Shown here: piece after piece, positions 5,155 to 61,711 of the stretch
How positions within the stretch are numbered: position 1 is the stretch's first letter
How the letters are laid out: every line of letters starts with the position of its first letter
Assembly: GCA_001899005.1 (NCBI GenBank)
Contig: MKUW01000026.1
Span: 21,468 to 85,467 of the forward strand
Length of the DNA: 64,000 bases
Direction: 5' to 3'
Source: Chloroflexi bacterium 44-23
GTDB taxonomy: Bacteria; Chloroflexota; Anaerolineae; Anaerolineales; Anaerolineaceae
Translations under genes and position numbers: made by a program
Notes under the pieces: generated by a model
Database searches by the model: none
What the model was told of the DNA's origin: nothing
Seen by the model: only the letters and a program-made list of their open reading frames with translations

Positions 5155-5155
5155 A

Positions 5156-12085: not shown

Positions 12086-12099
12086 TTTATAGGATTGAT

Positions 12100-14414: not shown

Positions 14415-14416
14415 TT

Positions 14417-17911: not shown

Positions 17912-18068
17912 TCACAAAGTTGATTTTAATGATGGGTTCCTTGTAAATTATATACGTTTTTAAGATCAATTCTTTATCCTAACACAATTAGGTATAATGA
18001 TTCACAGATAACCAGGTGAGTTATGACGAATTAGATAGAATGCATTTACATTATTAGTACCTGTGAAG

Positions 18069-18158: not shown

Positions 18159-18227
18159 CTATAACGTTATAAATTTATTAAAGCTGGTTAAATTGAGAAT
18201 AATAATTTCGGTTGAGGAGAGAAAAAT

Positions 18228-19001: not shown

Positions 19002-19002
19002 T

Positions 19003-28177: not shown

Positions 28178-28180
28178 GTG

Positions 28181-29332: not shown

Positions 29333-29528
29333 TTTCACTCCTCTGGATGTGTATTTCAACGATGAAAAGATGGAAGGTGTTTTTTACGATTACAACCACA
29401 ATGATTTTCACGAATCATTATAGCCTTAATCAATACAGCCTATTTTAAGAATTTTCAATTTCGGACAAATACCAACAAAAATCAGGCAGCTGATGGATCA
29501 ATTCGAGTTGAATGGGGTGAGCGAAGTC

Positions 29529-40724: not shown

Positions 40725-40727
40725 TGA

Positions 40728-41486
40728 TCACTCACTAAAGAAACTTTCCCAGCGAGAGCCCGAAAAATACTTTTTCAACTCAGAATAATTGCTGATGGAT
40801 TCAGCCAGGGTGAGCCGGGATTGTTTATATGTCTGTGGAGCCAATGCTTGAATCTCAAGTCCGAGAAAATCCTGAATATTTTCCATGATTTTATGTGTAT
40901 TTGCGACCAAATTTTCGTAGCTGATTGACATGATTGGGTGGTCTTTAAATCGTGCGTCTGCATCTTCTTCCCAGCGAGCTGTGGTTTCAAAATCTTCCTG
41001 ACACTTTTGAGCGTCGATAAAAACAGGTGACTGTTTTTCTTTTTCGCCTGTGATATTCACCCAGCGATTGTTTTGATCAGCTTGAATCCGTGAGACATGC
41101 GTGGCAAGCATGTTGTCACGTTTAATGTGGAGAATATGAATGGCCTTATCTTTGGTAACATAGTCCCATATCTGCTGGTAAGGGGGATTACTGGCATGAT
41201 AATAAAAAAGCTTGAACCCGACCGCAGCGATTTCAGGGCGAAATTTGCGAAATACATATTTATCAAGGAAACTGATTGGGTCTGATTGGTAGGTAGCTAA
41301 CACCCGGCTTGTGGCAGAATATTGAGGTGAATCAAATTCGATTCGATCGGTTTCACGAAATATTTCTCCTAAACTGATCACCTGTGGGTGATTCTTAAGG
41401 AACCCCCTTAAGAAATTGGAACCCGTGCGTGAACGTCCAAGGATTATGAAGCGTGTTTAGTCCTTACTCCCTTTCAACAAACCCAT
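40728..41486 (-). pseudogene. Sulfotransferase interrupted by an in-frame TAA after codon 9
   Basis: Minus-strand reading from ATG 41486 gives MGLLKGSKD-TAA(41459..41457)-TRFIILGRSRTGSNFLRGFL..., running in frame into ORF 40728..41381. GRSRTGSN is the PAPS 5'-phosphosulfate loop. IKRDNMLATHVS is the 3'-phosphate motif. There is no ATG/GTG/TTG between the stop and the P-loop. Confidence 0.6.
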
Positions 41487-41572
41487 TTTTATCGCCAATG
41501 CTTCCGCTTGCGGATTTTTCAATGTTAACCATCCTCTAATGTGCATTTTCTTCATGAGAAGCTGACCGACCC

Positions 41573-42487
41573 TCAAGGGGATGTTTGAGATCGTTGACCC
41601 CAGTTTTGCAACCTGAAATCCCGTATTCCCTGCCACATGGCGTCACGGTTGGCTCGTTTATGACGCCATTTTGGTCTAAGACTCCATGATAATAATATCC
41701 GTATAAAATACAACCAGGTGAAGAACCATACCCGTAAAGGTGCATTGTGAATTTTATTAAATAAGAGGCGGTTGCGGGTGGCATAATATGTAACATTTGC
41801 ACCTGGTTGGTAATCCCTTTGAACACCTTTATGCCATATTTTTGCCCGGGGAATCATCCAAACACTCCAACCCATTTTTGAAACCCGGTAACACCACTCG
41901 GTTTCTTCCCAATAATAAAAGAAGCGTTCATCCAACCCACCTGCCTGTTCGAGTGCTTCACGGCGAATACCAATCGCACATCCATGAATCCAGTCTACTT
42001 CGAATGGTGAGGTAAATTGTGCATGATCGTTTTCGTTTTGGGCCTGATGGTATGCTTTCCAATGGCGATCAAATAATCCACCTGCAGATTGAATCACCTG
42101 TGGTTCGTCGTAATGGTAAACAAGTGGACCGATAATTCCGACCTGATCGTTTTTCTCGACTGAATCCATCATTATTCTTAACGCATCCGGTGCGAAAATT
42201 GTGTCTTCGTTCAAAACAAAAATCCAGTCGGGGTCAAACTTTTTGACGAAATTCAAGCCGACATTATTGTTGCCGGCGTACCCTTGATTTTCTTGAATTG
42301 CCAGAACGTGAACATTTGGAAATGCCGATTGAATAGCTTCCACAGACCCATCCCTGGAGTGGTTATCAAGCACCACAATTTCCAGCTCAGGGTAATGATT
42401 TTCCTCTAATGAGGTCAGACATTCCAGAGTGTCAATTTTCCGGTTGGTATTAAGTATGATTGCAGCGATTTTTTGCGGAGAGGTCAT
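41573..42487 (-). CDS. Family 2 glycosyltransferase (rhamnosyltransferase-like)
   Basis: IAAIILNTNRKIDTLECLTSL...VVLDNHSRDGS and a DxD-like NED. 304 aa. Confidence 0.8.
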   Translation of the reverse strand: MTSPQKIAAIILNTNRKIDTLECLTSLEENHYPELEIVVLDNHSRDGSVEAIQSAFPNVHVLAIQENQGYAGNNNVGLNFVKKFDPDWIFVLNEDTIFAPDALRIMMDSVEKNDQVGIIGPLVYHYDEPQVIQSAGGLFDRHWKAYHQAQNENDHAQFTSPFEVDWIHGCAIGIRREALEQAGGLDERFFYYWEETEWCYRVSKMGWSVWMIPRAKIWHKGVQRDYQPGANVTYYATRNRLLFNKIHNAPLRVWFFTWLYFIRILLSWSLRPKWRHKRANRDAMWQGIRDFRLQNWGQRSQTSP

Positions 42488-42498: not shown

Positions 42499-43500
42499 TT
42501 ACTTATCCAGCCATGCTTTTGGAAAATTTTTATGGACTTCGATATTCTCGAATTTACTGCTTTCGCGGACACCATGCTTTTTAACCCAGGCTGCCATTTT
42601 CTCCAAGCCTTCATCAAGAGTGTGTTTTGGCCGACTGCCAAAAATCTTATTAATTTTCGCGTGTGAAGAATATGCATCAATCACTTCATTACGGGCTGGT
42701 AGATGACGGATATCAGCCCTGGTACCCATTGCATTTGCCACCGCTCCGGCGAGTTGGTTGATGCTGTAAGGTTGATCCGCACCGATATTGAAAATCTGGT
42801 TGAAAGCTGAGGGTGAATCGATGGCTTCTGCCATAATGGGTGCCATATCACCGATAAAGCTGAACGCACGGGTTTGCTCGCCATCACCAAATACACTCAT
42901 AGGTTGATTCTGCAAGATCTGGTTCATGAAGATGCCAACAACATTGCGATATTTATCGCCGATATTCTGGCGTTCTCCAAATACATTATGAGGTCTGAAG
43001 ATTATGTAATCAAGCCCGAACATTTCTTTGCAAGCTCTCAGTTCCTGCTCGATGGCCAGCTTGGCAATACCGTAAGAATCTTCCGGGTGGGGGAGGGTTT
43101 CTTCTGTCATTGGCAGCTCAGGACTGGTGCCATACACTGCAATTGAGGATGTAAAGACAAAGCACTTTACATTTTGGTTAATAGACGCGTTGATCAAATT
43201 AATACTGCCGATTAAATTATTTTCATAATTAAATCGCTTAATAAAATGACTTAATCCTTCAGCTGCGTACGCCGCCAAATGGTAAACAAAATCAAACTGT
43301 TTATCGGCGAACAATTGATTTACCAAATGTACATCATTAATCGACCCTTGAATAAAATCGGCTCTTGGATTCACGTTTTCAATAAAGCCGCCACTTAAAT
43401 CGTCCAAAACCGTGACTTCCAATCCACGATTCAATAATGCATCGCTAATATGTGAACCAATGAATCCGGCCCCACCTGTAACCAGAGCTTTTCTAAGCAT
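42499..43500 (-). CDS. NAD-dependent nucleotide-sugar epimerase/dehydratase (extended SDR)
   Basis: VTGGAGFIGSH Rossmann loop, TSSIAVYG, catalytic YGIAKL (YxxxK). 333 aa. Confidence 0.8.
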   Translation of the reverse strand: MLRKALVTGGAGFIGSHISDALLNRGLEVTVLDDLSGGFIENVNPRADFIQGSINDVHLVNQLFADKQFDFVYHLAAYAAEGLSHFIKRFNYENNLIGSINLINASINQNVKCFVFTSSIAVYGTSPELPMTEETLPHPEDSYGIAKLAIEQELRACKEMFGLDYIIFRPHNVFGERQNIGDKYRNVVGIFMNQILQNQPMSVFGDGEQTRAFSFIGDMAPIMAEAIDSPSAFNQIFNIGADQPYSINQLAGAVANAMGTRADIRHLPARNEVIDAYSSHAKINKIFGSRPKHTLDEGLEKMAAWVKKHGVRESSKFENIEVHKNFPKAWLDK

Positions 43501-43521: not shown

Positions 43522-44628
43522 TTAGCCAAAAATATACACATAAAAACGATTCAGGGCAGTTCTTTTTACAATCTCCATTAAAATTAATGGACCCAAAATG
43601 GCTGCCGCGACCAGAATTGGCTGAAAAACAATCTGGTATTGGAAAATGAAGGGCGCGATTTGATAAATGACCTTAGCCGTAACGGTTATGAATAAGGTGT
43701 GGGTTAAGTAAATTCCAAAAGATTTACTCCCAAGAACATTTAACCATTTTTGGCGTGAAATTGTATTCATGTTAAAGCCAATGAATGAAAGAATCAGCAA
43801 GATTGAATAAATATTGTCAATAAAAGTCTCACGAGAAGCTATCCAATCTTGACCGGAAGCAGCCAAGAGACTTTCCCACTCCCACATGCCGATCGGAATT
43901 AAGACAATCGTAAGCGCTAAGAATACCCATCTCCTTTTGGTTAAGAATCCGGCAATATTTTTATAATAAAAACCAATTGAAATTCCAAGCACCAGCCAAA
44001 AAAGGTTGCCGGGAAAAAACCAGGAAGGCAGCAATAAATTTACGATCTCGCTGCCCGGATAAACCAATCCAAGTATGCTGGCATACTGTCCCATGCGAAT
44101 AAACAACATCAATAAAAAAGAAAGGAATAATAAAAGCAGTGGCTTTTTTCGTGAAGCACGCGTCAAGAAAGGAGCAAGCAGATATAACTGTACCAGAAGC
44201 GGGATAAAATAAAAGGCTGCTACAGCTTTCCCTGTCAGGAAAATCGTTAAGAGCTCTAGTATCTGGTAATTTTGCCCAAAAAGAATGTTCATGAGCACCA
44301 TCAAGAGTGACCATAACAAATACGGGATGGCAAGGAATTTTATCCTTGTGAAGATCCAGCTCCATTTTGGGGCAGATTCTTTCCCTGTAGCAAACGTGAT
44401 GAAGTATCCGGACACAAAAAGAAATACCGGAATGGCGAAAATGATAATTTGTTCAACAAAACGCAATCCATAATACGAAAATGAACCCAATTGGTCAAAG
44501 TTGGGAACCTGAACAAGGCGATACCTATCGGTCCACCAGAACATGGAAATAAATCCCCAGCCGGCTGCATGATACAGGACAGCTCCTAGGATAGCCATCC
44601 CATTGATCGCTAACAGTTTTTTGATCAT
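43522..44628 (-). CDS. Acyltransferase 3 family membrane O-acyltransferase
   Basis: 368 aa, about 10 TM helices. N-terminal INGMAILGAVLYHAAGW with the conserved His. Tandem paralogue of 44650..45756. Confidence 0.75.
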   Translation of the reverse strand: MIKKLLAINGMAILGAVLYHAAGWGFISMFWWTDRYRLVQVPNFDQLGSFSYYGLRFVEQIIIFAIPVFLFVSGYFITFATGKESAPKWSWIFTRIKFLAIPYLLWSLLMVLMNILFGQNYQILELLTIFLTGKAVAAFYFIPLLVQLYLLAPFLTRASRKKPLLLLFLSFLLMLFIRMGQYASILGLVYPGSEIVNLLLPSWFFPGNLFWLVLGISIGFYYKNIAGFLTKRRWVFLALTIVLIPIGMWEWESLLAASGQDWIASRETFIDNIYSILLILSFIGFNMNTISRQKWLNVLGSKSFGIYLTHTLFITVTAKVIYQIAPFIFQYQIVFQPILVAAAILGPLILMEIVKRTALNRFYVYIFG

Positions 44629-44649: not shown

Positions 44650-45756
44650 TTAACCAAACACATATCCATAGACCCTTTTAAGTGGAGAAGGCTTAACGAG
44701 TTTCATCAGCAGCAGAGGAATAAATAAACCTGTCACTGCCATGATAATTGTAAATAAAATTGTCATGGAAAGGAGCTGTGGCATAAAATGGTAAATTAAA
44801 CGGGCTGTAAGCTCCATAACAGGAACATGGGCCAGATAAATCCCAAAAGATTGAGTACCAACTTTTTCTACCCAGTTTTTTTGAGGAAGATTCCCATTCA
44901 AACTCAAGATCCAAAAAAGTATGGCAATTGCGTAAAAGGCGTTGAAAACCGTCTCTCTAGTTCCTAACCAATCCGCACCGACAAGGTGCAGGAGGATTTC
45001 TTTTTCAACAAGCGAGATTGAAAGAAAACCAATCGCTAGCACAAACCAAAGCTTTCTTTTGCTAAGACAAAAGCTCTGGAATGCTTCGCGATTCACATAA
45101 ATGACTATTCCAAGACAAAACCAGAAAAGACGGGCAATGAAAAGCCATTTTGGAATTGCGCGCACAAATAGCACAATGGCAGCATCTTTTGGAAAGAATA
45201 TAATCATATAGGGAATCAGATCAATACCCAATTGTAGAAGCCCGGTGAAAAGCAACAATAACTTCCAGTTTTTCCTGGCAAATTCAATCAAGAGCGGTGA
45301 GAGCAGATATAGCTGGATTAATAAAATCACAAAGTAATATGCAGGTGTTATCGAACCCGTCAGGTAAAAGACCAAAATCTCCAAAGGGCTGGAGCTTTTT
45401 CCCTGCATGAGATTAAATATGAGATAGATGGTGGTCCAAAGTAAATAAGGGATTAGAAGGAACTTGGTTCGGTTGATAATTGATTTCCACTGCATGCGAG
45501 CAGGTTGATTTGAAGATTTAAAGGCCACAAAATAACCGGAAACAAATAAAAATGCAGGAATGCTGAAAATTGCTATTTGTTCAATCACGCGCAAGAAATA
45601 ATACTGCGGGGAACCGATTTGAGAGATTGATGTGCCTCCCTGCGTTAAGTATTGATTTGACCATGCAAACATGGCGGTCTGACCCCAGCCGCCGGCATGA
45701 AAAACGATCACGGCAAGGATTGCCAGTCCGTTCAGATAAAGGAAACGCTTAATCAT
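44650..45756 (-). CDS. Acyltransferase 3 family membrane O-acyltransferase
   Basis: 368 aa, about 10 TM helices. LNGLAILAVIVFHAGGW. The start overlaps the stop of the halogenase-like gene by 8 nt. Confidence 0.75.
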   Translation of the reverse strand: MIKRFLYLNGLAILAVIVFHAGGWGQTAMFAWSNQYLTQGGTSISQIGSPQYYFLRVIEQIAIFSIPAFLFVSGYFVAFKSSNQPARMQWKSIINRTKFLLIPYLLWTTIYLIFNLMQGKSSSPLEILVFYLTGSITPAYYFVILLIQLYLLSPLLIEFARKNWKLLLLFTGLLQLGIDLIPYMIIFFPKDAAIVLFVRAIPKWLFIARLFWFCLGIVIYVNREAFQSFCLSKRKLWFVLAIGFLSISLVEKEILLHLVGADWLGTRETVFNAFYAIAILFWILSLNGNLPQKNWVEKVGTQSFGIYLAHVPVMELTARLIYHFMPQLLSMTILFTIIMAVTGLFIPLLLMKLVKPSPLKRVYGYVFG

Positions 45757-47071
45757 TCCCGCTTGAAACTTGGGCTAAAGATTCAGCCAATATGGTCTCT
45801 GGTATTTCATCTATTGGAATATTGGTGAGTTGAGCTCGGAAAATATGATTTTCTTTTTTCTCAACTGCTTCAATATACCGGCGCATAGCATCGAGGACTT
45901 CTACTTCTGAACGATCAAATACGTCGCCTTGTAATAAGCGATGAATTTCAATGCCATATTTTTTTGATTGGATAAAATGGGTGAACAATGGTAACAACTT
46001 GTAGTATAAGCGGATGAATTCATACCAGATAACAGTCCCAGATTTTAATTTGGTCTGGTAAGGTATGAACATTTCTTTGCTGAAATCTCCGACCTTCAAA
46101 GCGTTCTCGATAACATCAGCAGCAAAACGGCCGCTATACAAAGCGATGCTGACTCCTGAGGAGAATATGGGATCTACAAATCGAGCAGCATCACCAACCA
46201 ATAGAAAGCCATCACCAACAAACTGATCCATGCTGTAACTGTAATCCCCTTCAGTTTTGAACTCATTGATTTGGTGTGCATTTGCCAAAGCTTTGGAAAG
46301 AGCGACATTACTATTGACATATGTATCGAAATAGGATGACATATCCCCTTTAAATTTTCGGAATACTTCACGTTCAACGACAATTCCAACCGAGGTAATT
46401 TCAGGTGTGATTGGTATCTGCCAGGCCCAACCGCGTTCCACCGGCAAAAAATAGATGTGGATGTAATCCTCAGTTTCCTCAATATCGCCACGATGGACAT
46501 TTTCAAACCAGGCATGCACTGCATATTGATTGAAAATAGGGTCATTCTTCTTCATGTTAAGGTGCCGGCCGAGAATGGTGCTGCGTCCGCTGGCATCGAC
46601 TATGATCTTGGCATGCAAATCTACTTCCTGATCACCCAATTGAGCTCGCACCCCGACAGCCTGGTTTCCTTGGAAAAGAACCTGTTTAACATTGACTCCT
46701 TGAACTACCTGCGAACCCAGCTTTTGAGCGTTCTTGAGCAATAACAGGTCAAGTTTGCTACGATCCACATGATAGGTATAATCTTGATGGATATCCTCTC
46801 TTACAAGATCGCGAAAATGAATTGCGAATTCCCTGCCACCAGGTTCATGCCAGGAAGCCCCCCCTTTGTGTACGAATTTTTCCTTTTCCATAATAGGCAG
46901 CATTCCCAGCTCTTCAAATACCAGCGATGAGGAAGTCACCATCGATTCACCAACGTGCGGACGAGGGTGAATGTCTTTTTCAATAATCATATTGCTGATA
47001 CCTTTCATTGAAAGGTAACTGCCAATCGAAGACCCAGCCGGTCCGCCACCAATAATAATTACGTCAACCAT
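45749..47071 (-). CDS. Flavin-dependent halogenase-like FAD enzyme (PltA/CndH-type candidate)
   Basis: 440 aa. IIIGGGPAGS (GxGxxG), HVGESM, Lys69 in HKGGASW, GWAWQIP (WxWxIP signature), VDASGRS, GDAARFVDPIFSSGVSIA. Confidence 0.6.
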   Translation of the reverse strand: MVDVIIIGGGPAGSSIGSYLSMKGISNMIIEKDIHPRPHVGESMVTSSSLVFEELGMLPIMEKEKFVHKGGASWHEPGGREFAIHFRDLVREDIHQDYTYHVDRSKLDLLLLKNAQKLGSQVVQGVNVKQVLFQGNQAVGVRAQLGDQEVDLHAKIIVDASGRSTILGRHLNMKKNDPIFNQYAVHAWFENVHRGDIEETEDYIHIYFLPVERGWAWQIPITPEITSVGIVVEREVFRKFKGDMSSYFDTYVNSNVALSKALANAHQINEFKTEGDYSYSMDQFVGDGFLLVGDAARFVDPIFSSGVSIALYSGRFAADVIENALKVGDFSKEMFIPYQTKLKSGTVIWYEFIRLYYKLLPLFTHFIQSKKYGIEIHRLLQGDVFDRSEVEVLDAMRRYIEAVEKKENHIFRAQLTNIPIDEIPETILAESLAQVSSGND

Positions 47072-47096
47072 TTTTGCTCCTGTAAAAAGAAAATAA

Positions 47097-47333
47097 TTAT
47101 TTAGCGCTTAGAAAATTATTTAACGAAGCAATACTTTGAAAGTTTTCAAGGACAACGTCCTCATCGTCAACCTGGATATTGAACTTTTCTTCAATGAAGC
47201 TGACCAACTGAAGAATCCCCAATGAGTCGATGATACCTTCACTCAACAAATCATCATCCGGCTTAATATTTGATTTTCTCCCCTTTGCCAACTCACTTTC
47301 AACAAAATTAGTTAATTCCTTTGTGCGATCCAT
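47097..47333 (-). CDS. Acyl/peptidyl carrier protein (DltC-like)
   Basis: 78 aa. Phosphopantetheine attachment motif EGIIDSLGILQLV. Acidic four-helix-bundle-sized protein. Confidence 0.75.
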   Translation of the reverse strand: MDRTKELTNFVESELAKGRKSNIKPDDDLLSEGIIDSLGILQLVSFIEEKFNIQVDDEDVVLENFQSIASLNNFLSAK

Positions 47334-47357
47334 TCATGCCTCCGCTTAAAATACTTT

Positions 47358-48923
47358 TCATTTATTTACAATTTGCAATGCACGCCGATCAATTTTTCCT
47401 GTCGATGTTCTCGGAAATTCTGACCGAATTTCTATTTCGACTGGAATAGCATAAGGTGGTAATATTCTTCTCAACTCTGAAAATAATACATCTTCTGTAA
47501 GATTATTTTCCAGTTTTGGTATAATGGCAGCTTTGATTAAATTTGACCCTTCACCGTCAGTAACGGGATATACAGCAGCTTCTTGGACATCATCGAGAGC
47601 CAATAACGCATTTTCAATTTCGTCGAGCTCTACCCGATACCCGCGTGTTTTTACCTGGCGGTCTTTGCGGCCAAGAAAGCGGTAATTGCCATCCTCCCGC
47701 TTTTGAACCAGATCTCCTGTGCGGTAAAAGCGATCGAAAAATTGATCATTTACTGGCCGGTCAAAAAAACCTTTGCTGGTTAACTCTGGTGCTCCCCAAT
47801 AACCCTTCATGACGACACCACCACGGATCAAAAGTTCCCCACTTTCTCCTGGGAGAACTGGATGCAAATCTATGTCTACGACCAGGTCTTCTACGTTATC
47901 ACAAGCGATTCCAATTGGTATCGGCTCATCCGAATCATCCGCAAGATTGGGGACATGGTAAAAAGTACACACATTGGTTTCTGTCGGCCCATAGAGATTA
48001 CTAAAACGAATGCAGGGTAACAGATGCATTAACTCTCGTAAGTGTTTTGTTGGGAAAGGTTCTCCGGCAAATAGAATCCAGCGCAGGTTGGAAAAGCTAT
48101 CCTGAGATAGTTTAGCGCGTTGCAACATTTGAATTAACGCGTACGGGACTGAGTACCAAACCGTAATTTTTTCGTCCTGAATCCATTTGGCCATTGAAAC
48201 TGGAAATTTGGTCACTGCCTCAGGGACAATACAGGTAGCAGCGCCAGCCAACGCTGATGCAAAAAAGTCGAACGTGGAAAGATCAAAATGCAAGGGAGCA
48301 TGGTTGCTGATGCGATCATTGGACGTTAATTGATACGTTTCCTGTGCCCATGTGGCGAAGCTCAATCCACTGCGATGTGTGTGAACGATCCCTTTGGGCA
48401 AACCAGTTGATCCTGAGGTATAGAGAATATAAGCCAGATCTTGTTCGGTCAAATGGATTTGTATTTCCTGTGTAGACCTCTTAAAAACCTCTGGCCAACT
48501 AGTAGTCGTCGACCCCGGTAGTGGTTCACTCAAACCAATGACGGCACTCAGGGAAACGCGTTTGGCCAGAGCCTGGACATCCGCTGTCTTACGATCATGT
48601 GACACAAGAATACGGATATCACAATTTGCAATCACATGTTCCTGGCGCTCAAGGGGGGCGAATGGATCGAGTGGCACATAGGCACAACCGGCACTTAAGA
48701 TGCCATATATAGCGACTGCAGAGTAGATATTCTTAAACATGAATATCCCAACACGGTCTCCACGCCGGACTCCATTGGCGATTAAACAATGCGCTAGCTG
48801 ATTACTTTTTTGATATAACTGTAAATAGGTGAGATGTTCCTTCGCAAAGCGAACAGCAACATTATTTGGTGTAGCTTGTGCATTACGCTTAATTGCCTGG
48901 TGTAGTAAATAATTTGACGTCAT
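47358..48923 (-). CDS. Stand-alone adenylation enzyme (amino acid/aryl acid--carrier protein ligase)
   Basis: 521 aa with NRPS A-domain cores: LAYILYTSGSTGLPKG (A3), FDLS (A4), NLYGPTE (A5), GELLIRGGVVMKGYW (A6), YRTGD (A7), GRKDRQVKTRGYRVELDEIE (A8), LPPYAIP (A9), STGKIDR (A10). Confidence 0.85.
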   Translation of the reverse strand: MTSNYLLHQAIKRNAQATPNNVAVRFAKEHLTYLQLYQKSNQLAHCLIANGVRRGDRVGIFMFKNIYSAVAIYGILSAGCAYVPLDPFAPLERQEHVIANCDIRILVSHDRKTADVQALAKRVSLSAVIGLSEPLPGSTTTSWPEVFKRSTQEIQIHLTEQDLAYILYTSGSTGLPKGIVHTHRSGLSFATWAQETYQLTSNDRISNHAPLHFDLSTFDFFASALAGAATCIVPEAVTKFPVSMAKWIQDEKITVWYSVPYALIQMLQRAKLSQDSFSNLRWILFAGEPFPTKHLRELMHLLPCIRFSNLYGPTETNVCTFYHVPNLADDSDEPIPIGIACDNVEDLVVDIDLHPVLPGESGELLIRGGVVMKGYWGAPELTSKGFFDRPVNDQFFDRFYRTGDLVQKREDGNYRFLGRKDRQVKTRGYRVELDEIENALLALDDVQEAAVYPVTDGEGSNLIKAAIIPKLENNLTEDVLFSELRRILPPYAIPVEIEIRSEFPRTSTGKIDRRALQIVNK

Positions 48924-48958
48924 TCTTTCCTCGATTAAGAGCTTATCTCTAAGAAAGG

Positions 48959-50104
48959 CTATAAACCCAGCATCCGGGCGATGATATTGCGCTGGATGTC
49001 GGAAGTTCCGCTGTAAATCAATCCGCCGACCGAATCACGCAGAATTCCTTCAACACCGTAATCACTCAAGTACCCTTTTGCACCGAATATTCGGACAGCA
49101 TCCAGGCTGGATTGAACGAAACATTCACTCAGATACAATTTGGCGATGGCAGCTTCCATTACTGCGGATTTCCCAATACTTTTTAACCAGGCAACTTTAT
49201 AAAGCATCAACCTGGAAGTCTCAAGACGCACTTTCATATCAACAATGCGGTTTGAGACAGACTGAAAATCACCAATCGGACGATTAAATTGTCTTCGTTC
49301 GCGGGCATAGGTTATACTCTGTTCAAGTTCGTATTCCATTGCGCCAAGACTGGAAGCCAGAATACAGCTACGTTCCCATTCCATACCCCCGCTGAAAAGT
49401 TGAGCCCCTCCGCCTTCCGGACCGAGGCGGTTTTCGAGAGGAATTTGGCAATTTACCAGCTCAACTGATCCCATCGGTATGGTTTTCAAACCCATTTTTT
49501 CGATCACCGGGCTGATGTCCAAGCCCGGTGTGCCCTTCTCAACCAGAAAGGCGGTCACGCCCCACATGCCTTTATTGGTGTTGACCGTCGCGAAAATTAA
49601 AAATAAATCGGCGATTGGCCCATTGGTGATAAAAGTCTTTGAGCCATTCAATATATAGTAATCACCACCGCGGTCAGCTGTTGATTGCAGGCTGTAAGCG
49701 TCCGATCCTGAAACCGGTTCTGACATACAATGACCGGCAATCATTTCTCCGCTGATTAACTTTGGCAGATATTTTTCTTTTTGTTGGGAGGTGCCATGGC
49801 TGACTATTGGCATCTGGACGCTCCACATTTGCGCATTGATCCCAAAAATCAAAGCTGCATCGCGGTAACCATAACCGAGACCTTCCATTATCAACATCGT
49901 ATCCAGAATATTGCCATCCTTGCCGCCATATTCAGCAGGCATTGGGTAGCCAATTACACCGCGTTGCGCGATTTTGTTCCAATCCTGGCGTGAAAAAAGA
50001 CCTTTTTTATCACGCTCTATAAAATCGGCACTTAATTCATCCTGTGCAAATTGAATAATGTCAGTTTTTATTTTTTGCTGATCAGCGCTCCAATAAAAAT
50101 CCAT
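48959..50104 (-). CDS. Acyl-CoA dehydrogenase family protein (probable acyl-S-carrier-protein dehydrogenase)
   Basis: 381 aa. MSEPVSGSD, YILNGSKTFITNGPIADLFLIFAT, MEWERS, IYSGTSDIQ. Clear paralogue of 28181..29332. Adjacent to the adenylation and carrier-protein genes. Confidence 0.8.
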   Translation of the reverse strand: MDFYWSADQQKIKTDIIQFAQDELSADFIERDKKGLFSRQDWNKIAQRGVIGYPMPAEYGGKDGNILDTMLIMEGLGYGYRDAALIFGINAQMWSVQMPIVSHGTSQQKEKYLPKLISGEMIAGHCMSEPVSGSDAYSLQSTADRGGDYYILNGSKTFITNGPIADLFLIFATVNTNKGMWGVTAFLVEKGTPGLDISPVIEKMGLKTIPMGSVELVNCQIPLENRLGPEGGGAQLFSGGMEWERSCILASSLGAMEYELEQSITYARERRQFNRPIGDFQSVSNRIVDMKVRLETSRLMLYKVAWLKSIGKSAVMEAAIAKLYLSECFVQSSLDAVRIFGAKGYLSDYGVEGILRDSVGGLIYSGTSDIQRNIIARMLGL

Positions 50105-50121: not shown

Positions 50122-51333
50122 CTAATTCATATGACCGGTAAAACCTACCAGCAGGTTTGCGAAACGGTCAGCAGAATGCTGCCATGCCCAGTGTTGCTCG
50201 ACTGATTGGCGCCCGTTTTTACCCAATTGGTTGAGTTTCTCTTTGTTCCCAATTAGCTCCCTGAGCGTGGCTCCAAAAATAGTTTCATCCCTGGGAGCAA
50301 GAACACCTGTTTTTTGATCTTCAATTGTTTCAAGAAAGCCCCCTTCGGATACTGCCAGGACTGCAGCGCCACAGGCCATCGCTTCGATCGGAACCAGGCC
50401 GAATGGCTCGCGGATGGAAGCGCAGATAGTCAATCTGGCACGGTTATAATGCTCCCGTAAAGATTCATCGCTGATACCTGCTTTTAACCGAAACTCGACA
50501 CCAGATACGGTTGCGAGCTGTTCCAGATATGCTTTTTCCTCCGGATTTACGAAATTGCAGGCGATGAACAGAGGAAGGCGGTCTGATTCAGGCAGGGTCG
50601 CGAGTGAGCGAATAATGAAATCAAATCCTTTCAACGGCGTCAATGAGCCTACTGAGAAGAGGTAATCATCCTTGGGGAGGTCAATGGGATAAAAAAAATC
50701 AAGATTAACCCCACCGTAATTGGTAACAGGCTCGACCGGGTAAATTTGTGCGACGATAGAACGCATGAAATTTGAATTGACAAGGATATGATTGGCAGAA
50801 ACAATGTTCATTAAGTCGTTTTTCTTTAGAGTATTAAAAAAGAGGTTGTAAAAGGGATCAATGAAATTGATCATCGTTCTTAAGCGGGATTCAGGGCGGT
50901 CGTAAGGCCTTGCTGGCATTTTTTCATACAAAATTCGCAATGGCTCCTGGCAGTAAAAAATGGTCGGTATATTTTTCGTAAAGTGAAGTAATGCTGGCGA
51001 ATTTTGTATTTTCGAAGGGTGTACCCAGACCAAATCAAAACCTTTTTTCTCTATATCAACCGCCATTCTGCGGTCCAAGTTGCGCAATCGTCCAAGATCC
51101 AACCAGCGGATCAGATTATTGATACGGCCGAAGGGAGAATTGTACAATTTCCCTGTTTTGAAAGGTGTGATTTGGTGTGTTCGTGCAAATGGTCGAATAT
51201 CACAGAAATCGTGATTGGCATCGGAATATGTGTAAACATGGAATTCATGCCTGTTGGCGAGCCGTTGAAGGTGCTCGAACATCATTCTTTTTGCTCCCCC
51301 AGAGGGCAAGTGGTGATAGACTGCAATTTTCAA
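50122..51333 (-). CDS. Family 4 (GT-B) glycosyltransferase
   Basis: 403 aa. REPFGLVPIEAMACGAAVLAV E-x7-E region. Confidence 0.75.
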   Translation of the reverse strand: MKIAVYHHLPSGGAKRMMFEHLQRLANRHEFHVYTYSDANHDFCDIRPFARTHQITPFKTGKLYNSPFGRINNLIRWLDLGRLRNLDRRMAVDIEKKGFDLVWVHPSKIQNSPALLHFTKNIPTIFYCQEPLRILYEKMPARPYDRPESRLRTMINFIDPFYNLFFNTLKKNDLMNIVSANHILVNSNFMRSIVAQIYPVEPVTNYGGVNLDFFYPIDLPKDDYLFSVGSLTPLKGFDFIIRSLATLPESDRLPLFIACNFVNPEEKAYLEQLATVSGVEFRLKAGISDESLREHYNRARLTICASIREPFGLVPIEAMACGAAVLAVSEGGFLETIEDQKTGVLAPRDETIFGATLRELIGNKEKLNQLGKNGRQSVEQHWAWQHSADRFANLLVGFTGHMN

Positions 51334-52349
51334 CTGAGATTCCGCCTGTTAATTATGAAATTGTTCATTTCTTGCTGGGGCGGATTGTGAGTACCTTGTA
51401 AATCGTTCATTTCAGCCGAAACCATGATTTGAACAATTTCTTTGAAATTTGTTTTTGCTTCCCACCCTAATAAGCGACAGGCTTTGGAAGGATCTGCCAC
51501 TAATTGAATAGTTTCCTTGGGCCGCACCAAAAGTGGGTCTTGAACTACGTAATCACGATAATCCAGGTCAAGATAGGAGAAAGCTTCCTCACAAAAATCG
51601 CGTACAGAATTCGTCTTGCCGGTTCCGATAACATAATTGGTAGGCTGATCTTGTTGTAACATCAGCCACATAAAATGCACGTAATCAGGAGCGTATCCCC
51701 AGTCCCGTCGGGCATCCAGGTCTCCAAGAACCAGGTCATTGGAGAGACCCAATTTTATTTTTGCTGCGCCTCTGGCAATTTTGCGCGTGACAAAATCTTT
51801 CCCACGACGTGGACTTTCATGATTAAACAGGATTCCGGAGACGGCAAAGAGATGATGGTAATGACGATAATTTTGGACCATCCAGTGTGCATATAACTTG
51901 GCAACCCCGTATGGGTTGCGTGGTGCAAAGGCAGTCTTTTCGTTCTGAGGTGATTCTGTGGGGCTTCCAAACATTTCACTACTGGATGCCTGGTAGTATT
52001 TAATTAAGGGGTTGACCTGCAGAATTGCCTCCAGAATGCGCGTGACTCCCGCGGCAGTGACATCACCGATATTAACAGCATATTGCCATGATTCATGCGG
52101 CCGTGATGGTGAAGCGAGATTGTAAATCTCATCTGGTTGAAATTTTTCAAGACTGTGAATGATCTCTTCACTTTCGGTCAGGTCAATTTCCTGAAGAGAG
52201 ATCAGATCCTGAATCGACAATAAATTTTCGACGGCATTTAAACGCCCAGGACGTACCCATCCCAAGACTTGATATCGCTCTGAAAGGAGCCATTCTGCCA
52301 TATAGGAGCCGTCTTGACCATTGATTCCAATTACGATTGCTTTTTTCAT
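51330..52349 (-). CDS. gmd: GDP-mannose 4,6-dehydratase
   Basis: KKAIVIGINGQDGSYMAEWLL, YGVAKLYAHWMVQNYR (YxxxK), GILFNHESPRRGKDFVTRKI. 339 aa. Confidence 0.85.
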   Translation of the reverse strand: MKKAIVIGINGQDGSYMAEWLLSERYQVLGWVRPGRLNAVENLLSIQDLISLQEIDLTESEEIIHSLEKFQPDEIYNLASPSRPHESWQYAVNIGDVTAAGVTRILEAILQVNPLIKYYQASSSEMFGSPTESPQNEKTAFAPRNPYGVAKLYAHWMVQNYRHYHHLFAVSGILFNHESPRRGKDFVTRKIARGAAKIKLGLSNDLVLGDLDARRDWGYAPDYVHFMWLMLQQDQPTNYVIGTGKTNSVRDFCEEAFSYLDLDYRDYVVQDPLLVRPKETIQLVADPSKACRLLGWEAKTNFKEIVQIMVSAEMNDLQGTHNPPQQEMNNFIINRRNLS

Positions 52350-52472
52350 ATATATCCTATAAAAAAATATTTGGCAGCACCGGGTTTGGTTAACACCAAT
52401 TATTACCCCGTTTTGCGAACCTCAGAGACAGAAATGCACATTCAAAGTCAAAAACTGTAACGGTGGTACTGT

Positions 52473-53567
52473 TTAGTTATGAAGTCCAAACGGTGTGTTA
52501 TCGATTGATTGTACAACCGGAATACGGCGTTTTAATAATTTTTGCGCAAGGTTAGGATTGATCCAAACAATCAATGAAATCAGCCAGGTTTTCAAATCAA
52601 ATGGATTCAAAATCAAGGATTTACAAAGCCAGTTTTTTACCAAAATAGAATTTTCCGCGTTGATAATCTGGCTGGTAGCAGCAAGGCGCAGCAAGCGAGC
52701 TTGAAAGCTTTTGGGTAAATGGGCGAATTGTGGGTGGGCAAACAGAGTGACTGAGCGTTCCGGTTGGTCATATAACAAGTTCATAAACAAATCATAAAAG
52801 ACATAAAATCGGGTTGATGCCAAAAAGCAGGGAAATTCTGGTAAAGCGATAGCTTTCTCGCGGCAAAGTGCAAGAGATTCTCTCCGCTTGGCTGAAGCTG
52901 TGCGAATAGTGATATTTGATTCGTGCACACGATAATTGACGCCTTTGAAATCCAGGTAACCCCAATTGGTGAATTGAGCAAGGTGGGTGAAAAAGTCCCA
53001 ATCAGGACCGATCACGATACGGGTGTCAAATTGGATATGGTTAGCAGAGATGACATCTCTCCGGATTAAGGTACAGCTCGGCGGACCAAAAACGTCCGAG
53101 GCGCGAACCAGAGCTTCTAACAGCTTCCCATGAAATGGACCCCTACGCTGGTTTGAGAGCGGTTCAAGTTGGCGATTGTGCGTGTCGATGTACCAGCCGT
53201 CACAGTAGCAGGCGTTCAACTGGAGGTTATCCAACAAATAATGAGCCATTGTTTCAAGAAAATTGGGTAGGAATTGATCATCGGAGTCCAGAAAGGCAAC
53301 AAAATCACCTTGCATATGTTTGAGAGCATTATTTCGGGAAGCAGCCTCACCCTGATTGGATTGATTGAAAATGCGAATACGTTCATCATCAATATCTGAC
53401 AAGATGTCAGGTGTCCGATCAACCGAGCCGTCATTGATCAGGATTAATTCCCAATGCGTATAGGTTTGATCAATGATAGATTGGATAGCTTGTCGGATAT
53501 AACGCTCAGCGTTATAGGCTGGCATCATAATTGAGATGAGAGGGGTATCAGTCAATTCTCCGACCAT
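52473..53567 (-). CDS. Family 2 glycosyltransferase
   Basis: ISIMMPAYNAERYIRQAIQSIIDQTY...ILINDGSVDRT and the DxD motif LDSDD. 364 aa. Confidence 0.8.
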   Translation of the reverse strand: MVGELTDTPLISIMMPAYNAERYIRQAIQSIIDQTYTHWELILINDGSVDRTPDILSDIDDERIRIFNQSNQGEAASRNNALKHMQGDFVAFLDSDDQFLPNFLETMAHYLLDNLQLNACYCDGWYIDTHNRQLEPLSNQRRGPFHGKLLEALVRASDVFGPPSCTLIRRDVISANHIQFDTRIVIGPDWDFFTHLAQFTNWGYLDFKGVNYRVHESNITIRTASAKRRESLALCREKAIALPEFPCFLASTRFYVFYDLFMNLLYDQPERSVTLFAHPQFAHLPKSFQARLLRLAATSQIINAENSILVKNWLCKSLILNPFDLKTWLISLIVWINPNLAQKLLKRRIPVVQSIDNTPFGLHN

Positions 53568-54799
53568 TTCCTTTGCATGAGTAATTTCGTCATCAGGCTT
53601 TCTACCTCGGCCGCGGTGTGTCGCCAGGAGTTATTTTGTTCTGCATCCAGGCGCGCATGGTATCCGAGCTTTCTGCGTAAACCCGGATTACCAATCAATG
53701 AAAGCATAGCGTCTTCCAAAGCGTTCACATCACAAGGCGCAACTATTAAGCCGGTCTTGTTGTGTATCAGGGTGGCTGGTTGCTCATTTTCACCACTGGA
53801 TATGATTGCCAATCCTGCTGCTTTGTAATCAAATAACTTCAGGCAAGAATATTCTTTACGTCCACAAACAGGTGAGACAGCGATATCGGCAGTTGCCAGG
53901 ATGGGGGCGTACTCTTGATAAGATAACTGCCCGGGAAAGGTAATTTTATGATCAAGGTTAAGTGCTACCACACGTTCCTTTGTCTCAACCAATCCAACGC
54001 CAGCCCCAATTAAAGTCAAATAAATATCGGGCCTGGTTCGTAGGCAGCGAGTGAAGGCTTCAATTAATAAATCGGTGCCATGCCAGGCGTAAAAACCGCC
54101 CAAAAATACAATTTCTACCGGATTAGTAGGTGCTTCCTCTGCAATTTTGAAGGGTTTTAATTGATCGCGATCAAGTATATCAACCAATACGGATCCGTTT
54201 TCGATTACTTTGATTTGATTCTCATTAATCTTCCAATTGTGAATTAACATGTCCCGCCATCCTTCTCCCGTGGCGATAATCATGGCAGCTTTTCGAAGAG
54301 TATATCGATATATCTTTATCGCCAGCCAACGCTGGATTCCTTGCGGGGCAATTTTCTTGGCATCCAGATCAATCAATGGATCACCATTGAATTCCTGGAT
54401 GATCGGGATTTTTAACTTATTCGCCATCAGCGTTGTGCCATAGGCCATCCAGGAGGTGCGCTCGATGATTAAATCAAATCCTTGAAGTTGAGGGAGGCAT
54501 TGTCTCGCAAAATGATGGCTTTCAAACCAGGCAAAATAAGGGAAACGAATAATTGTTTGAATTTTACGAATTACTTTTTCAGCCAGGTTGAGGAACCGGT
54601 TTAGCTTTGGTACAGGAAGAATCCCAAAATGTTCCAAATCATCACTGTAATAGCGGAGGTTGTTCAAGCCAAAAATAAGACGAACATCATGCCCACGCTT
54701 GGCTAATTCCATCGATATTTGTCGAATATGGTTGGCAGGTCCATCAAAAGGCGGCGTAATTAAATCGCTGCTAAACTGAACGACATAAGCGATCTTCAT
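53552..54799 (-). CDS. Family 4 (GT-B) glycosyltransferase
   Basis: 415 aa. N-terminal GT4-type domain (MKIAYVVQF...GPANHIRQISMELAKRGHDV) and a C-terminal GT-B nucleotide-binding half. Confidence 0.7.
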   Translation of the reverse strand: MKIAYVVQFSSDLITPPFDGPANHIRQISMELAKRGHDVRLIFGLNNLRYYSDDLEHFGILPVPKLNRFLNLAEKVIRKIQTIIRFPYFAWFESHHFARQCLPQLQGFDLIIERTSWMAYGTTLMANKLKIPIIQEFNGDPLIDLDAKKIAPQGIQRWLAIKIYRYTLRKAAMIIATGEGWRDMLIHNWKINENQIKVIENGSVLVDILDRDQLKPFKIAEEAPTNPVEIVFLGGFYAWHGTDLLIEAFTRCLRTRPDIYLTLIGAGVGLVETKERVVALNLDHKITFPGQLSYQEYAPILATADIAVSPVCGRKEYSCLKLFDYKAAGLAIISSGENEQPATLIHNKTGLIVAPCDVNALEDAMLSLIGNPGLRRKLGYHARLDAEQNNSWRHTAAEVESLMTKLLMQRKWSEN

Positions 54800-55791: not shown

Positions 55792-55810
55792 AAAAAAGAG
55801 ATCACCTTTC

Positions 55811-61699: not shown

Positions 61700-61711
61700 A
61701 AAATTTTCTGC

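Follow-up and report, generated by a model that had tools for sequence, protein, structure and literature searches.

A proline-derived (halo)pyrrole cassette adjoining membrane acyltransferases in an envelope-glycan operon of a Chloroflexi bacterium suggests an undescribed glycan decoration

Introduction

The type II NRPS pyrrole modules of pyoluteorin (PltF, PltL, PltE and PltA) and of marine bromopyrroles (Bmp4, Bmp1, Bmp3 and Bmp2) comprise an adenylation enzyme, a carrier protein, a dehydrogenase and a flavin-dependent halogenase, which convert L-proline to a carrier-bound pyrrolyl-2-carboxyl group and halogenate it. A stand-alone adenylation enzyme and a small carrier protein are also found in the DltABCD system for D-alanylation of teichoic acids, where the carrier protein delivers the acyl group to a polytopic membrane acyltransferase that decorates an envelope glycopolymer. 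Bacterial glycans are additionally acylated by AT3 (Acyl_transf_3, PF01757) O-acyltransferases such as OafA/OafB, Oac, ExoZ/ExoH and NolL, for which acyl-CoA, and not ACP, is regarded as the donor (PMC9558356). The AT3 domain carries an R-X10-H motif that is described as ‘absolutely conserved’, the Arg of which is proposed to bind the CoA 3′-phosphate. Here, we analysed a 64 000-nt stretch (the window) of contig MKUW01000026.1 (assembly GCA_001899005.1) from the MAG ‘Chloroflexi bacterium 44-23’, in which the four enzyme types of a pyrrole module lie within a polysaccharide locus. A preliminary description of this locus had proposed that the carrier-bound, possibly halogenated, acyl group is destined for a glycan. 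Our comparisons support and sharpen this proposal, although the glycan destination and actual halogenation are inferred and not demonstrated.

Results

Four consecutive genes encode the enzymes of a pyrrole module

The cassette consists of four minus-strand ORFs at 48959–50104 (381 aa), 47358–48923 (521 aa), 47097–47333 (78 aa) and 45749–47071 (440 aa), separated by gaps of 35, 24 and 25 nt, with the last overlapping the next gene (44650–45756) by 8 nt, exactly as given in the preliminary description. The identical locus is present in many independent assemblies, the halogenase sequence being indexed in 97 blocks of the sequence collection. The first product matches the Pfam Acyl-CoA_dh_N, _M and _1 domains and is identified as an ACAD-family L-prolyl-S-carrier-protein dehydrogenase of the PltE/PigA/Bmp3/AnaB type. 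A phmmer search of PDB sequences gives AnaB (4irn) at 425 bits with a gapless end-to-end alignment that includes a shared MEWER segment, followed by Bmp3 (6cxt_B) at 326 bits and the prolyl-PCP dehydrogenase 5zw0 at 315 bits, whereas generic acyl-CoA dehydrogenases score at most 250 bits. The NCBIfam PigA and RedW models score 438.7 and 392.6 bits, respectively, which in both cases is below the equivalog cutoff (500 and 650).

The 521-aa protein (AMP-binding, 291 bits, plus AMP-binding_C) passes TIGR01733 (amino-acid adenylation domain) at 388.7 bits against a cutoff of 317, and reads YTSGSTGLPKG (A3), FDLSTFD (A4), NLYGPTE (A5), YRTGD (A7), GRKDRQVKTRGYRVEL (A8) and PRTSTGKIDR (A10). Its best stand-alone PDB hit is PltF (6o6e) at 308.9 bits. 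For the pocket fragment, PltF scores 188.6 bits, a second Pro ligase 150.4 bits and DltA 101.5 bits, and the specificity residues D-L-F-Y-L-A-L-V-C are identical to those of PltF (D-L-L-Y-L-A-L-V-C) at 8 of 9 positions. Thus, the enzyme groups with proline ligases and not with DltA or fatty-acyl ligases. The 78-aa product is a type II carrier protein (PP-binding, 32.2 bits) with the phosphopantetheine attachment Ser in GIIDSLG, and its PDB hits include the Bmp1 carrier domain (6cxt_A, E 2e-7) and PigG (7thn_E, E 0.003).

The 440-aa FAD enzyme matches Trp_halogenase (82 bits) and FAD_binding_3, and contains the motifs GGGPAG, HKGGASW, GWAWQIP and FVDPIFSSG. Over its full length it scores 378–385 bits against ChlB4 (4.8e-114), PltA (1.3e-112) and Mpy16 (5e-112), the alignments spanning residues 3–418 and including the C-terminal region, against 85 bits to digeranylgeranylglycerophospholipid reductase. 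K69 aligns with the catalytic Lys of PltA (K73). Among 55 close homologues, WxWxIP and FxDPxFSxG are present in 55 of 55 and K-x-G-A-x-W in 54 of 55. The enzyme therefore groups with carrier-protein-dependent FADH2 halogenases of the pyrrolyl-S-carrier-protein type (PltA/Mpy16/ChlB4), and not with reductases.

The cassette is embedded in a glycan export locus

Upstream of the cassette, the minus-strand genes at 50122–57661 encode GT4 (50122–51333), GDP-mannose 4,6-dehydratase (51330–52349), GT2, GT4, GT4 and an AsnB-like amidotransferase (55811–57661). Downstream lie two Acyl_transf_3 proteins, AT3a (44650–45756; 103 bits) and AT3b (43522–44628), a paralogue with 39% identity to AT3a, followed by an NAD-dependent sugar epimerase/dehydratase (42499–43500; Pfam Epimerase, 180.7 bits), with AT3a, AT3b and the epimerase gene separated by 21 nt each. 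The conserved downstream glycan core at 38098–42487 on the same strand comprises GT2 (41573–42487), a sulfotransferase remnant (40728–41381), GT4 (39510–40724) and a Wzy_C/O-antigen-ligase-like protein (38098–39513). A Wzm/Wzt ABC exporter (60470–62473, minus strand; ABC2_membrane, ABC_tran and Wzt_C at 76.8 bits) carries a C-terminal carbohydrate-binding domain on Wzt, and its best NCBIfam hits are TagH/Wzt-type teichoic-acid or galactan export models. No condensation, KS or thioesterase domain was found in any of the window ORFs scanned, which excluded four ORFs of at least 150 aa at 94–6094.

Gene order is conserved in divergent Chloroflexota

The order ACAD–A–CP–(halogenase)–AT3–AT3–epimerase–GT2–GT4–Wzy_C recurs in Chloroflexota loci whose proteins are only 40–80% identical. 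The halogenase is an optional insert, present in roughly a third to 40% of loci. Among the related loci that we compared (numbered with the prefix L), the order AsnB-GT4-GT4-GT2-GT4-ACAD-A-CP-HAL-AT3-AT3-Epim-GT2-...-Wzy_C is conserved in L008 and largely in L009 and L013, at 36–76% protein identity, and L007 shows the same order up to the halogenase, where the contig ends. The tandem AT3 pair is conserved in most related loci, and the epimerase follows it in most syntenic loci but is absent in L050 and L080. Four of four distant AT3-subfamily members (41–44% identity) lie immediately after A-CP, with or without ACAD and HAL, and before (Epim-)GT2-GT4-Wzy_C. In an independent metagenome scan seeded with AT3, 13 of 16 loci with at least 4.5 kb upstream have A/CP directly upstream, and one of the other three has the prolyl-type ACAD directly downstream. 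Two AT3-subfamily loci (L087 and L103) lack a prolyl-type cassette within 7 kb, L103 having only a weak A-like hit upstream. Across 36 CP-to-AT3 or HAL-to-AT3 junctions, the median gaps are 98 and 37 nt. In a 4.46-Mb Chloroflexota contig, HAL-CP-AT3 stand alone as a three-gene unit, and in other lineages the cassette or halogenase also sits beside glycan or lipid-A-type acyltransferase genes. Thus, the cassette does not look like a stray piece of a non-glycan pathway.

The adjoining AT3 proteins belong to a motif-altered subfamily

AT3a and AT3b belong to a small subfamily of AT3-only proteins that almost always sits directly after a carrier-protein or halogenase gene. The AF2 model of AT3a (pLDDT 91) is all-helical. 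In this subfamily His20 of TMH1 is invariant, but position H-11 is Asn in 114 of 121 sequences instead of the canonical Arg/Lys, and in the metagenome set it is never Arg or Lys in the 62 of 74 AT3 sequences where the motif could be located. AT3b shows the same TMH1 pattern (N9...H20). As a carrier-protein phosphopantetheine arm has no 3′-phospho-adenosine, the loss of the Arg proposed to bind the CoA 3′-phosphate suggests a new kind of acyl donor for this enzyme family. No CP-AT3 fusion protein was found among 150 representatives.

Discussion

We favour, with moderate confidence, a reading in which a complete type II NRPS pyrrole module has been recruited into an envelope-glycan operon. From strong homology to characterized enzymes, we infer that the adenylation enzyme activates L-proline and loads it on the 78-aa carrier protein, that the ACAD-type flavoenzyme oxidizes prolyl-S-CP to pyrrolyl-2-carboxyl-S-CP, and that the PltA-type halogenase chlorinates or brominates the tethered pyrrole. 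From gene context and the motif changes, we infer that the product is not handed to an NRPS or PKS, but that the acyl-S-carrier protein docks on one or both of the adjacent AT3-only enzymes, which would use the invariant TMH1 His to transfer the (halo)pyrrole-2-carboxyl group as an ester to a sugar of the polymer built by the neighbouring glycosyltransferases and exported by Wzm/Wzt. In related Chloroflexota the same module often lacks the halogenase, so that halogenation would be an optional tailoring step on a more widespread pyrrolyl-glycan decoration. We found no literature describing such a route, and it rests on inference and not on experiment, as no product, glycan structure or enzyme activity is known for any member. 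There is, moreover, no precedent for a carrier-protein donor to an AT3 enzyme, the ACAD is most similar to AnaB, which probably stops at the 2-electron pyrroline product, so that the acyl group could be dehydroprolyl rather than pyrrolyl in some loci, some halogenase-containing loci lack an ACAD nearby (L055 and L069), and FADH2-dependent halogenases need O2 and a flavin reductase, whereas no reductase was identified and many Anaerolineae are anaerobes.

It is possible, though we consider it unlikely, that the cassette and the AT3 pair are functionally independent, with the latter acting as ordinary acyl-CoA-dependent O-acetyl or O-acyl transferases of the glycan, and the (halo)pyrrolyl-S-CP being offloaded onto the glycan or elsewhere by an unidentified enzyme, for example a glycosyltransferase-associated or alpha/beta-hydrolase acyltransferase as may operate in clorobiocin biosynthesis. 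All characterized AT3 proteins use acyl-CoA (PMC9558356; PMC12423673), and the catalytic His, an FFxISG-like motif and R96-x-K98 are retained here. In addition, L050 carries an alpha/beta-hydrolase/thioesterase-like gene downstream, and L015 and L023 have SGNH/GDSL proteins next to the ACAD. However, the subfamily lies directly after a CP or halogenase gene in nearly all loci with enough sequence, the isolated HAL-CP-AT3 trio exists, a CP gene is interleaved between the two AT3 genes in L009, L050 and L080, the proposed CoA-binding Arg is lost across the subfamily, and no alternative acyltransferase is present among the window ORFs scanned. Less likely still is that the cassette makes a diffusible small molecule, such as a free halopyrrole carboxylate or a polyhalopyrrole as in the Bmp pathway, or supplies a starter for a pathway encoded elsewhere, its position in the glycan operon being incidental. 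The same halogenase family does occur in classical NRPS contexts, as L032 and L044 have large adenylation-containing ORFs next to the cassette and the S. clavuligerus pSCL4 locus (L049) has NRPS-type neighbours, and several homologues sit alone among unrelated genes (L012 and L014). Against this, besides the absence of thioesterase, condensation and KS domains from the window ORFs scanned, the cassette lies inside one co-directional operon with gaps of at most 35 nt, and its conserved position between the same GT4 and the AT3 pair across divergent Chloroflexota is hard to explain by hitch-hiking.

A further alternative, to which we also assign a low likelihood, is that the chemistry is as proposed but that the acyl group is not a halogenated pyrrole or the acceptor is not the polysaccharide. 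The best PDB match of the ACAD is AnaB rather than the pyrrole-forming enzymes, and the ACAD may stop at the 2-electron dehydroprolyl stage, as AnaB probably does. The ‘halogenase’ may likewise be inactive or act as a hydroxylase, and most related loci lack it. The acceptor may be a membrane glycolipid, a lipid carrier or a glycoprotein, as the Wzy_C ligase-like protein and a PMT_2 GT-C enzyme in the locus could attach the glycan to a protein or lipid, and in L041 the halogenase and carrier proteins are paired with an LpxL-type lipid acyltransferase. Nevertheless, the halogenase keeps every catalytic motif, is most similar to enzymes that act on pyrrolyl-S-CP, and would have no known substrate if the ring were not aromatized, whereas Wzm/Wzt with a Wzt_C domain, a Wzz/tyrosine-kinase protein and at least 10 glycosyltransferases argue for a polymer.

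Relationship to known systems

With the Plt and Bmp modules the cassette shares the four enzyme types, full-length, high-scoring similarity to solved members (PltA, Mpy16, PltF, Bmp3 and the Bmp1 carrier domain), the Pro pocket code, and the catalytic Lys and WxWxIP of the halogenase. It differs in having no PKS, NRPS or thioesterase partner, among the ORFs scanned, to consume the pyrrolyl-S-CP, in its glycan operon context with membrane AT3 acyltransferases following, and in a halogenase that is shorter than PltA by a loop of about 15–18 residues after the catalytic Lys. The proposed logic parallels that of DltA/DltC/DltB, and the exporter of the window is TagH/Wzt-like, but the membrane enzyme is of the AT3/TmAT fold rather than MBOAT, which is reported to be structurally distinct (PMC12423673), the substrate is inferred to be proline-derived and further oxidized and halogenated on the carrier, no DltD homologue was seen, and the adenylation enzyme resembles PltF more than DltA. 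Transfer of a (methyl)pyrrole-2-carboxyl group to noviose by CloN1-N7 in clorobiocin/coumermycin likewise appears to esterify a sugar hydroxyl from a proline-derived pyrrolyl-S-carrier protein, although the acceptor there would be a small-molecule aminocoumarin glycoside and the acyltransferase and ACP components soluble. As in the AT3 glycan O-acyltransferases, the AT3 proteins of this locus match the Pfam model far above its cutoff, are AT3-only, all-helical and polytopic, are located in a polysaccharide locus, and retain the invariant TMH1 His, an FFxISG-like motif and an R-x-K/R in the TMH3 region. They differ in that the canonical R/K-X10-H (DxxRx10H) Arg and Asp are replaced (L6...N9...H20) across the subfamily, in that their genes are physically coupled to a carrier protein and an adenylation enzyme rather than relying on the acyl-CoA pool, and in that the presumed acyl group is aromatic.

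Assignment of the cassette proteins

The four minus-strand ORFs at 48959-50104, 47358-48923, 47097-47333 and 45749-47071 lie exactly where the preliminary description had placed them, are separated by gaps of 35, 24 and 25 nt, and the last of them overlaps the next gene (44650-45756) by 8 nt. In the same order, Pfam assigns Acyl-CoA_dh_N/M/1 (ACAD), AMP-binding plus AMP-binding_C (the adenylation enzyme, A), PP-binding (the carrier protein, CP) and Trp_halogenase/FAD_binding_3 (the FAD enzyme, HAL). The motifs attributed to these products in the preliminary description (GxGxxG, GWAWQIP, HKGGASW and FVDPIFSSG in the FAD enzyme, IDSL in the carrier protein and the A3-A10 cores including FDLSTFD in the adenylation enzyme) are all present in the translations. 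In the MAG ‘Chloroflexi bacterium 44-23’ the halogenase is deposited as a hypothetical protein, OJX39526.1, and the identical locus occurs in many independent assemblies.

The FAD enzyme aligns over residues 3-418 with three solved carrier-protein-dependent halogenases, ChlB4 (7fco, 4.8e-114), PltA (5dbj, 1.3e-112) and Mpy16 (5buk, 5e-112), whereas CndH scores 1e-48, CmlS 9e-39 and digeranylgeranylglycerophospholipid reductase 3.5e-23. K69 in HKGGASW aligns with the second Lys of PltA KKFGAAW, which by our count of the PltA sequence is K73. WxWxIP and FxDPxFSxG are present in 55 of 55 close homologues, and the Lys motif in 54 of 55. The adenylation enzyme passes the amino-acid adenylation model TIGR01733 (388.7 bits, cutoff 317), and its best stand-alone PDB match is PltF. 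With only the specificity-pocket fragment as query, the two best PDB hits are both L-proline-[L-prolyl-carrier-protein] ligases (PltF, 188.6 bits; 7thn, 150.4 bits), far ahead of LgrA (126 bits, two domains summed) and DltA (101.5 bits). The residues at the Stachelhaus positions, which were assigned by eye from the A4/A5 motifs, read D-L-F-Y-L-A-L-V-C as compared with D-L-L-Y-L-A-L-V-C in PltF, and the single difference matches the other Pro ligase. A literature search for the adenylation code gave no hits, and the comparison was instead made directly against the PltF sequence in the PDB.

The ACAD aligns end to end and without gaps with the prolyl-ACP dehydrogenase AnaB (425 bits), as well as with Bmp3 (326 bits) and the prolyl-PCP dehydrogenase 5zw0 (315 bits), whereas ordinary acyl-CoA dehydrogenases reach at most 250 bits. 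NCBIfam ranks PigA (438.7 bits, cutoff 500) and RedW (392.6 bits, cutoff 650) first, although both scores fall below their equivalog cutoffs. The carrier protein scores 32.2 bits against the PP-binding model (cutoff 20.8), carries the phosphopantetheine Ser in a GIIDSLG motif, and hits type II PCPs, including the Bmp1 carrier domain and PigG. Taken together, the assignments are consistent with a Pro-to-pyrrolyl-S-CP-to-halopyrrolyl-S-CP module, although the ACAD is closest to AnaB, probably a 2-electron enzyme, and the sequence does not distinguish 4-electron from 2-electron oxidation.

Two alternative readings of these enzymes were considered. As the geranylgeranyl-reductase model TIGR02032 scores 154 bits with the FAD enzyme, just under its cutoff of 158.8, a reductase or monooxygenase was entertained, but this was rejected because the protein aligns end to end with three solved pyrrolyl/acyl-S-CP halogenases at about 380 bits, against 85 bits for the reductase. 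A DltA or fatty-acyl-ligase reading of the adenylation enzyme was likewise rejected, since the DltA models score below cutoff (283.7 of 476 and 276.3 of 559.85 bits), PltF is the best stand-alone match and the pocket is of the Pro type.

Genes surrounding the cassette

From about 29.5 to 64 kb, everything in the window is on the minus strand and glycan-related. In transcription order, this region encodes a BNR-repeat protein, Wzm, Wzt with a Wzt_C carbohydrate-binding domain, a 525-aa protein, GT2, an AsnB-like amidotransferase, GT4, GT4, GT2, GDP-mannose 4,6-dehydratase and GT4, followed by the cassette, two Acyl_transf_3 proteins (AT3a and AT3b), an epimerase, GT2, a sulfotransferase, GT4, Wzy_C, GT2, GT4, PMT_2 and GT4, and finally a Wzz/tyrosine-kinase protein, a CBM96/DNRLRE protein and a HAD hydrolase. 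The 525-aa ORF (58890-60467, minus strand), which lies between a GT2 and Wzt, has no Pfam or NCBIfam match at all, and from its position could be a polymerase or chain-terminator component of the ABC-transporter pathway. No condensation, ketosynthase or thioesterase domain was found among the window ORFs scanned.

The sulfotransferase gene (40728-41573, minus strand) carries a nonsense polymorphism at about 41457-41459. Codon 22 is TAA in the window and in locus L003, but TAC (Tyr) in L001 and other sibling contigs, where the gene is 264 aa. The remaining 217-aa ORF starts after the ILGRSRTGSNFL segment, which looks like the PAPS-binding loop, and glycan sulfation is therefore probably switched off in this strain.

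A second ACAD (28181-29359, minus strand) was checked as a possible part of the system, but belongs to a separate acyl-CoA dehydrogenase/ETF unit on the minus strand at 24388-29359, together with an FeS/CCG-domain oxidoreductase (26168-28177) and ETF beta and alpha subunits (25404-26171 and 24388-25407), that is unrelated to the cassette. The window also holds, at 10634-15073 and 17039-19869, the ethanolamine ammonia-lyase genes eutA/eutB/eutC with a BMC-domain shell protein, and two DegV paralogues that flank a type III pantothenate kinase.

Conservation of the gene order

The halogenase has 3685 homologues at E <= 1e-40, of which the closest that carry a name are from Anaerolineae and other Chloroflexota, and a genome scan returned 40 loci. 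When these were probed with the window's own proteins, the order AsnB-GT4-GT4-GT2-GT4-ACAD-A-CP-HAL-AT3-AT3-Epim-GT2-...-Wzy_C was found to be conserved in locus L008 (HGW-Chloroflexi-10), and with variations in loci L009 and L013, at 36-76% identity, whereas locus L007 shows the same order up to the halogenase, where the contig ends. Iterated HMMs found AT3 genes next to the halogenase or CP only in Chloroflexota loci, and in a 4.46-Mb Chloroflexota contig HAL-CP-AT3 form a unit on their own. Additional, distant (25-28% identity) Trp_halogenase/FAD_binding_3 paralogues lie between or beside the AT3 genes in some Chloroflexota loci (L009, 13030-14391; L043, 11669-13045 and 14217-15689), and in L009 one is flanked by extra carrier-protein genes.

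The AT3a subfamily is small, with 339 proteins at E <= 1e-10 in a word-indexed search and 364 representatives at E <= 1e-30 in an exhaustive search. Four of four distant members (41-44% identity) lie directly after A-CP and before (Epim-)GT2-GT4-Wzy_C. Three of these loci, L051, L052 and L053, have no halogenase, and L051 (1-15113) and L053 (1-15107) have the full ACAD-A-CP-AT3-AT3 order, reading FMO-like flavoprotein-GT4-sulfotransferase-ACAD-A-CP-AT3-AT3-Epim-GT2-GT4-Wzy_C. In L052 the ACAD appears only as fragments and the adenylation enzyme is short (438 aa), which suggests decay or assembly error. In an independent metagenome scan seeded with the AT3 alignment, 13 of 16 loci with at least 4.5 kb upstream have A/CP, with or without ACAD and HAL, directly upstream. 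One of the remaining three (L092) has the prolyl-type ACAD immediately downstream, whereas two (L087 and L103) lack a prolyl-type cassette within 7 kb, although L103 has a weak A-like hit. Among loci with at least 2 kb upstream, 14 are CP-linked, 9 of these having no halogenase, and 6 loci have one upstream. A few loci lack an ACAD or the cassette. Across 36 CP-to-AT3 or HAL-to-AT3 junctions, the median gaps are 98 and 37 nt. The conserved unit is therefore ACAD-A-CP-AT3-AT3 inside a glycan operon, with the halogenase as an optional insert between CP and AT3.

An altered TMH1 motif in the AT3 enzymes

AT3a and AT3b are 39%-identical, AT3-only paralogues of 368 aa that match the Acyl_transf_3 model (PF01757) at 103.3 and 90.5 bits, respectively (cutoff 31). 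An R/K-X10-H motif in TMH1 is shared by all characterised bacterial AT3 acetyltransferases, and both residues are essential in OafA (PMC7448272); the motif is also defined in PMC9833829, and has been described as a family-specific DxxRx10H motif within an acyl-CoA binding site (PMC12423673). The Arg is proposed to bind the CoA 3′-phosphate. In the subfamily studied here the His (H20) is invariant in 121 of 121 sequences, and the FFxISG-like motif and R96-x-K/R98 are kept, but the H-11 residue is Asn in 114 of 121 sequences, Ser in 6 and Arg in 1, and the Asp position is Leu. In the metagenome set the H-11 residue is N in 53, S in 4, M in 3 and I in 2, and never Arg or Lys in the 62 sequences where the motif could be located. 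As a phosphopantetheine arm on a carrier protein has no 3′-phospho-adenosine, loss of this Arg is what one would expect if the donor is acyl-S-CP, and gene context argues in the same direction, although this remains an inference and acyl-CoA rather than ACP is the accepted donor (PMC9558356).

The AF2 model of AT3a is confident (pLDDT 91, pTM 0.89) and all-helical, but Foldseek against the PDB gave no significant match (best E 0.29), which says nothing for or against the TmAT fold. A sequence search of AT3a against the PDB found no relative, and Kyte-Doolittle TM counting was too crude to be of use. No CP-AT3 or halogenase-AT3 fusion was found among the 150 best of 1.84 billion representatives, where the only long hit (P0245) is a read-through of two tandem AT3 genes.

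Variants in other lineages

In an Acidimicrobiia locus (L033), a CapD-like dehydratase and a GT4-GNAT fusion lie next to HAL-CP-A-ACAD. In a Calditrichaceae MAG (L041, 6944-12302), three tandem carrier proteins and the halogenase sit next to an LpxL-type (Lip_A_acyltrans) acyltransferase and beta-helix proteins, which hints at carrier-protein-fed acylation of a lipid or glycolipid. In two Chloroflexota loci that lack an adjacent AT3, from Anaerolineales (L015, 6156-7301) and Promineifilaceae (L023, 6025-7149), SGNH/GDSL proteins of about 375-380 aa directly precede the ACAD and are possibly an alternative acyl-transfer partner. In L015 the halogenase lies beside Wzm-Wzt. Na_H_Exchanger (cation/proton antiporter) genes recur directly beside the halogenase in two unrelated loci (L015, 8477-9958; L017, 11373-12677 and 13150-14544), and a link to halide or ion supply is conceivable.

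Two Rhodobacterales plasmids carry the best plasmid matches to the adenylation enzyme (46% identity). In the one examined, pRR4-35_2 of a cultured strain of Pseudohalocynthiibacter aestuariivivens (NZ_CP049039.1, 6402-23708), the order HupE/UreJ_2 membrane protein-CP-prolyl-type ACAD-methyltransferase-A lies next to YjbH/YjbF, a Wza-like exporter, a glycosyltransferase, WbuXYZ-like amidotransferase genes and DegT, and represents an AT3-less, halogenase-less analogue in an EPS or O-antigen locus. Classical NRPS contexts also exist, in loci L032 and L044 and in S. clavuligerus pSCL4, the last of which is unannotated in PLSDB and served only as a contrast. The halogenase family as such is therefore not glycan-specific.

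Proposed mechanism and comparison with known systems

Strong homology to characterised enzymes suggests that proline is activated, loaded on the CP, oxidised by the ACAD and halogenated on the CP, the last step needing O2 and reduced flavin. From gene context and motifs, we infer that the (halo)pyrrolyl-S-CP docks at the cytoplasmic mouth of AT3a and/or AT3b, and that His20 mediates transfer to a hydroxyl of the glycan assembled by the neighbouring glycosyltransferases, with the product exported by Wzm/Wzt. An epimerase follows the AT3 pair in most syntenic loci (not in loci L050 or L080) and a GDP-mannose dehydratase lies in the operon, which together make a 6-deoxyhexose no more than a reasonable guess for the acylated sugar.

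In a broader reading, which we regard as about as likely as not in the absence of experimental data, Chloroflexota (Anaerolineae and relatives) decorate an exported envelope glycan with pyrrole-2-carboxyl esters, chlorinated or brominated in a subset of lineages, that are installed by a dedicated AT3 subfamily taking its acyl group from a carrier protein instead of acyl-CoA. This would be both a new class of bacterial glycan substituent, including the first halogenated one, and the first carrier-protein-dependent member of the TmAT superfamily. Our literature searches found no pyrrolyl or halogenated acyl glycan substituent and no carrier-protein-dependent AT3, and the AT3 papers consulted do not describe one either. 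More speculatively, as the module sits near Wzm/Wzt genes and Wzt has a carbohydrate-binding Wzt_C domain, the (halo)pyrrolyl ester could be a chain-end cap read by the exporter, and such glycans could also be an unrecognised source of natural organohalogen in sediments and sludge. If the proposal is correct, an aromatic, optionally halogenated acyl group would be added to the known chemistry of bacterial surface glycans, and the current view that AT3/TmAT enzymes use only acyl-CoA donors (PMC9558356, PMC12423673) would be challenged, with the N-for-R change in TMH1 providing a simple sequence marker. Many of the PltA-type halogenases among the 3685 homologues come from uncultured Chloroflexota and other phyla and would be scored as natural-product genes in genome mining, but on this reading a share may instead be envelope-tailoring enzymes.

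All parts of the system belong to known families, and carrier-protein-fed acylation of an envelope glycopolymer is itself known, whereas the wiring, the altered AT3 motif and the predicted product are new. As in the type II NRPS halopyrrole modules (PltFLEA/Bmp), there is a stand-alone adenylation enzyme with a Pro-type pocket, a discrete carrier protein and an FADH2-dependent halogenase with GxGxxG, WxWxIP and the catalytic Lys, but a downstream PKS, NRPS or thioesterase that would consume or release pyrrolyl-S-CP was not found among the window ORFs scanned. The membrane enzymes match the AT3 family (PF01757) and retain its TMH1 histidine, but not the R/K-X10-H motif. With respect to the Dlt system, the adenylation enzyme is not of the D-alanine-specific DltA type, the membrane enzymes are Acyl_transf_3 rather than MBOAT, and no MBOAT or DltD-type protein was found in the window ORFs scanned. 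The proposed mechanism nevertheless parallels DltA/DltC/DltB, and would be a convergent, Dlt-like solution on a different membrane-enzyme fold.
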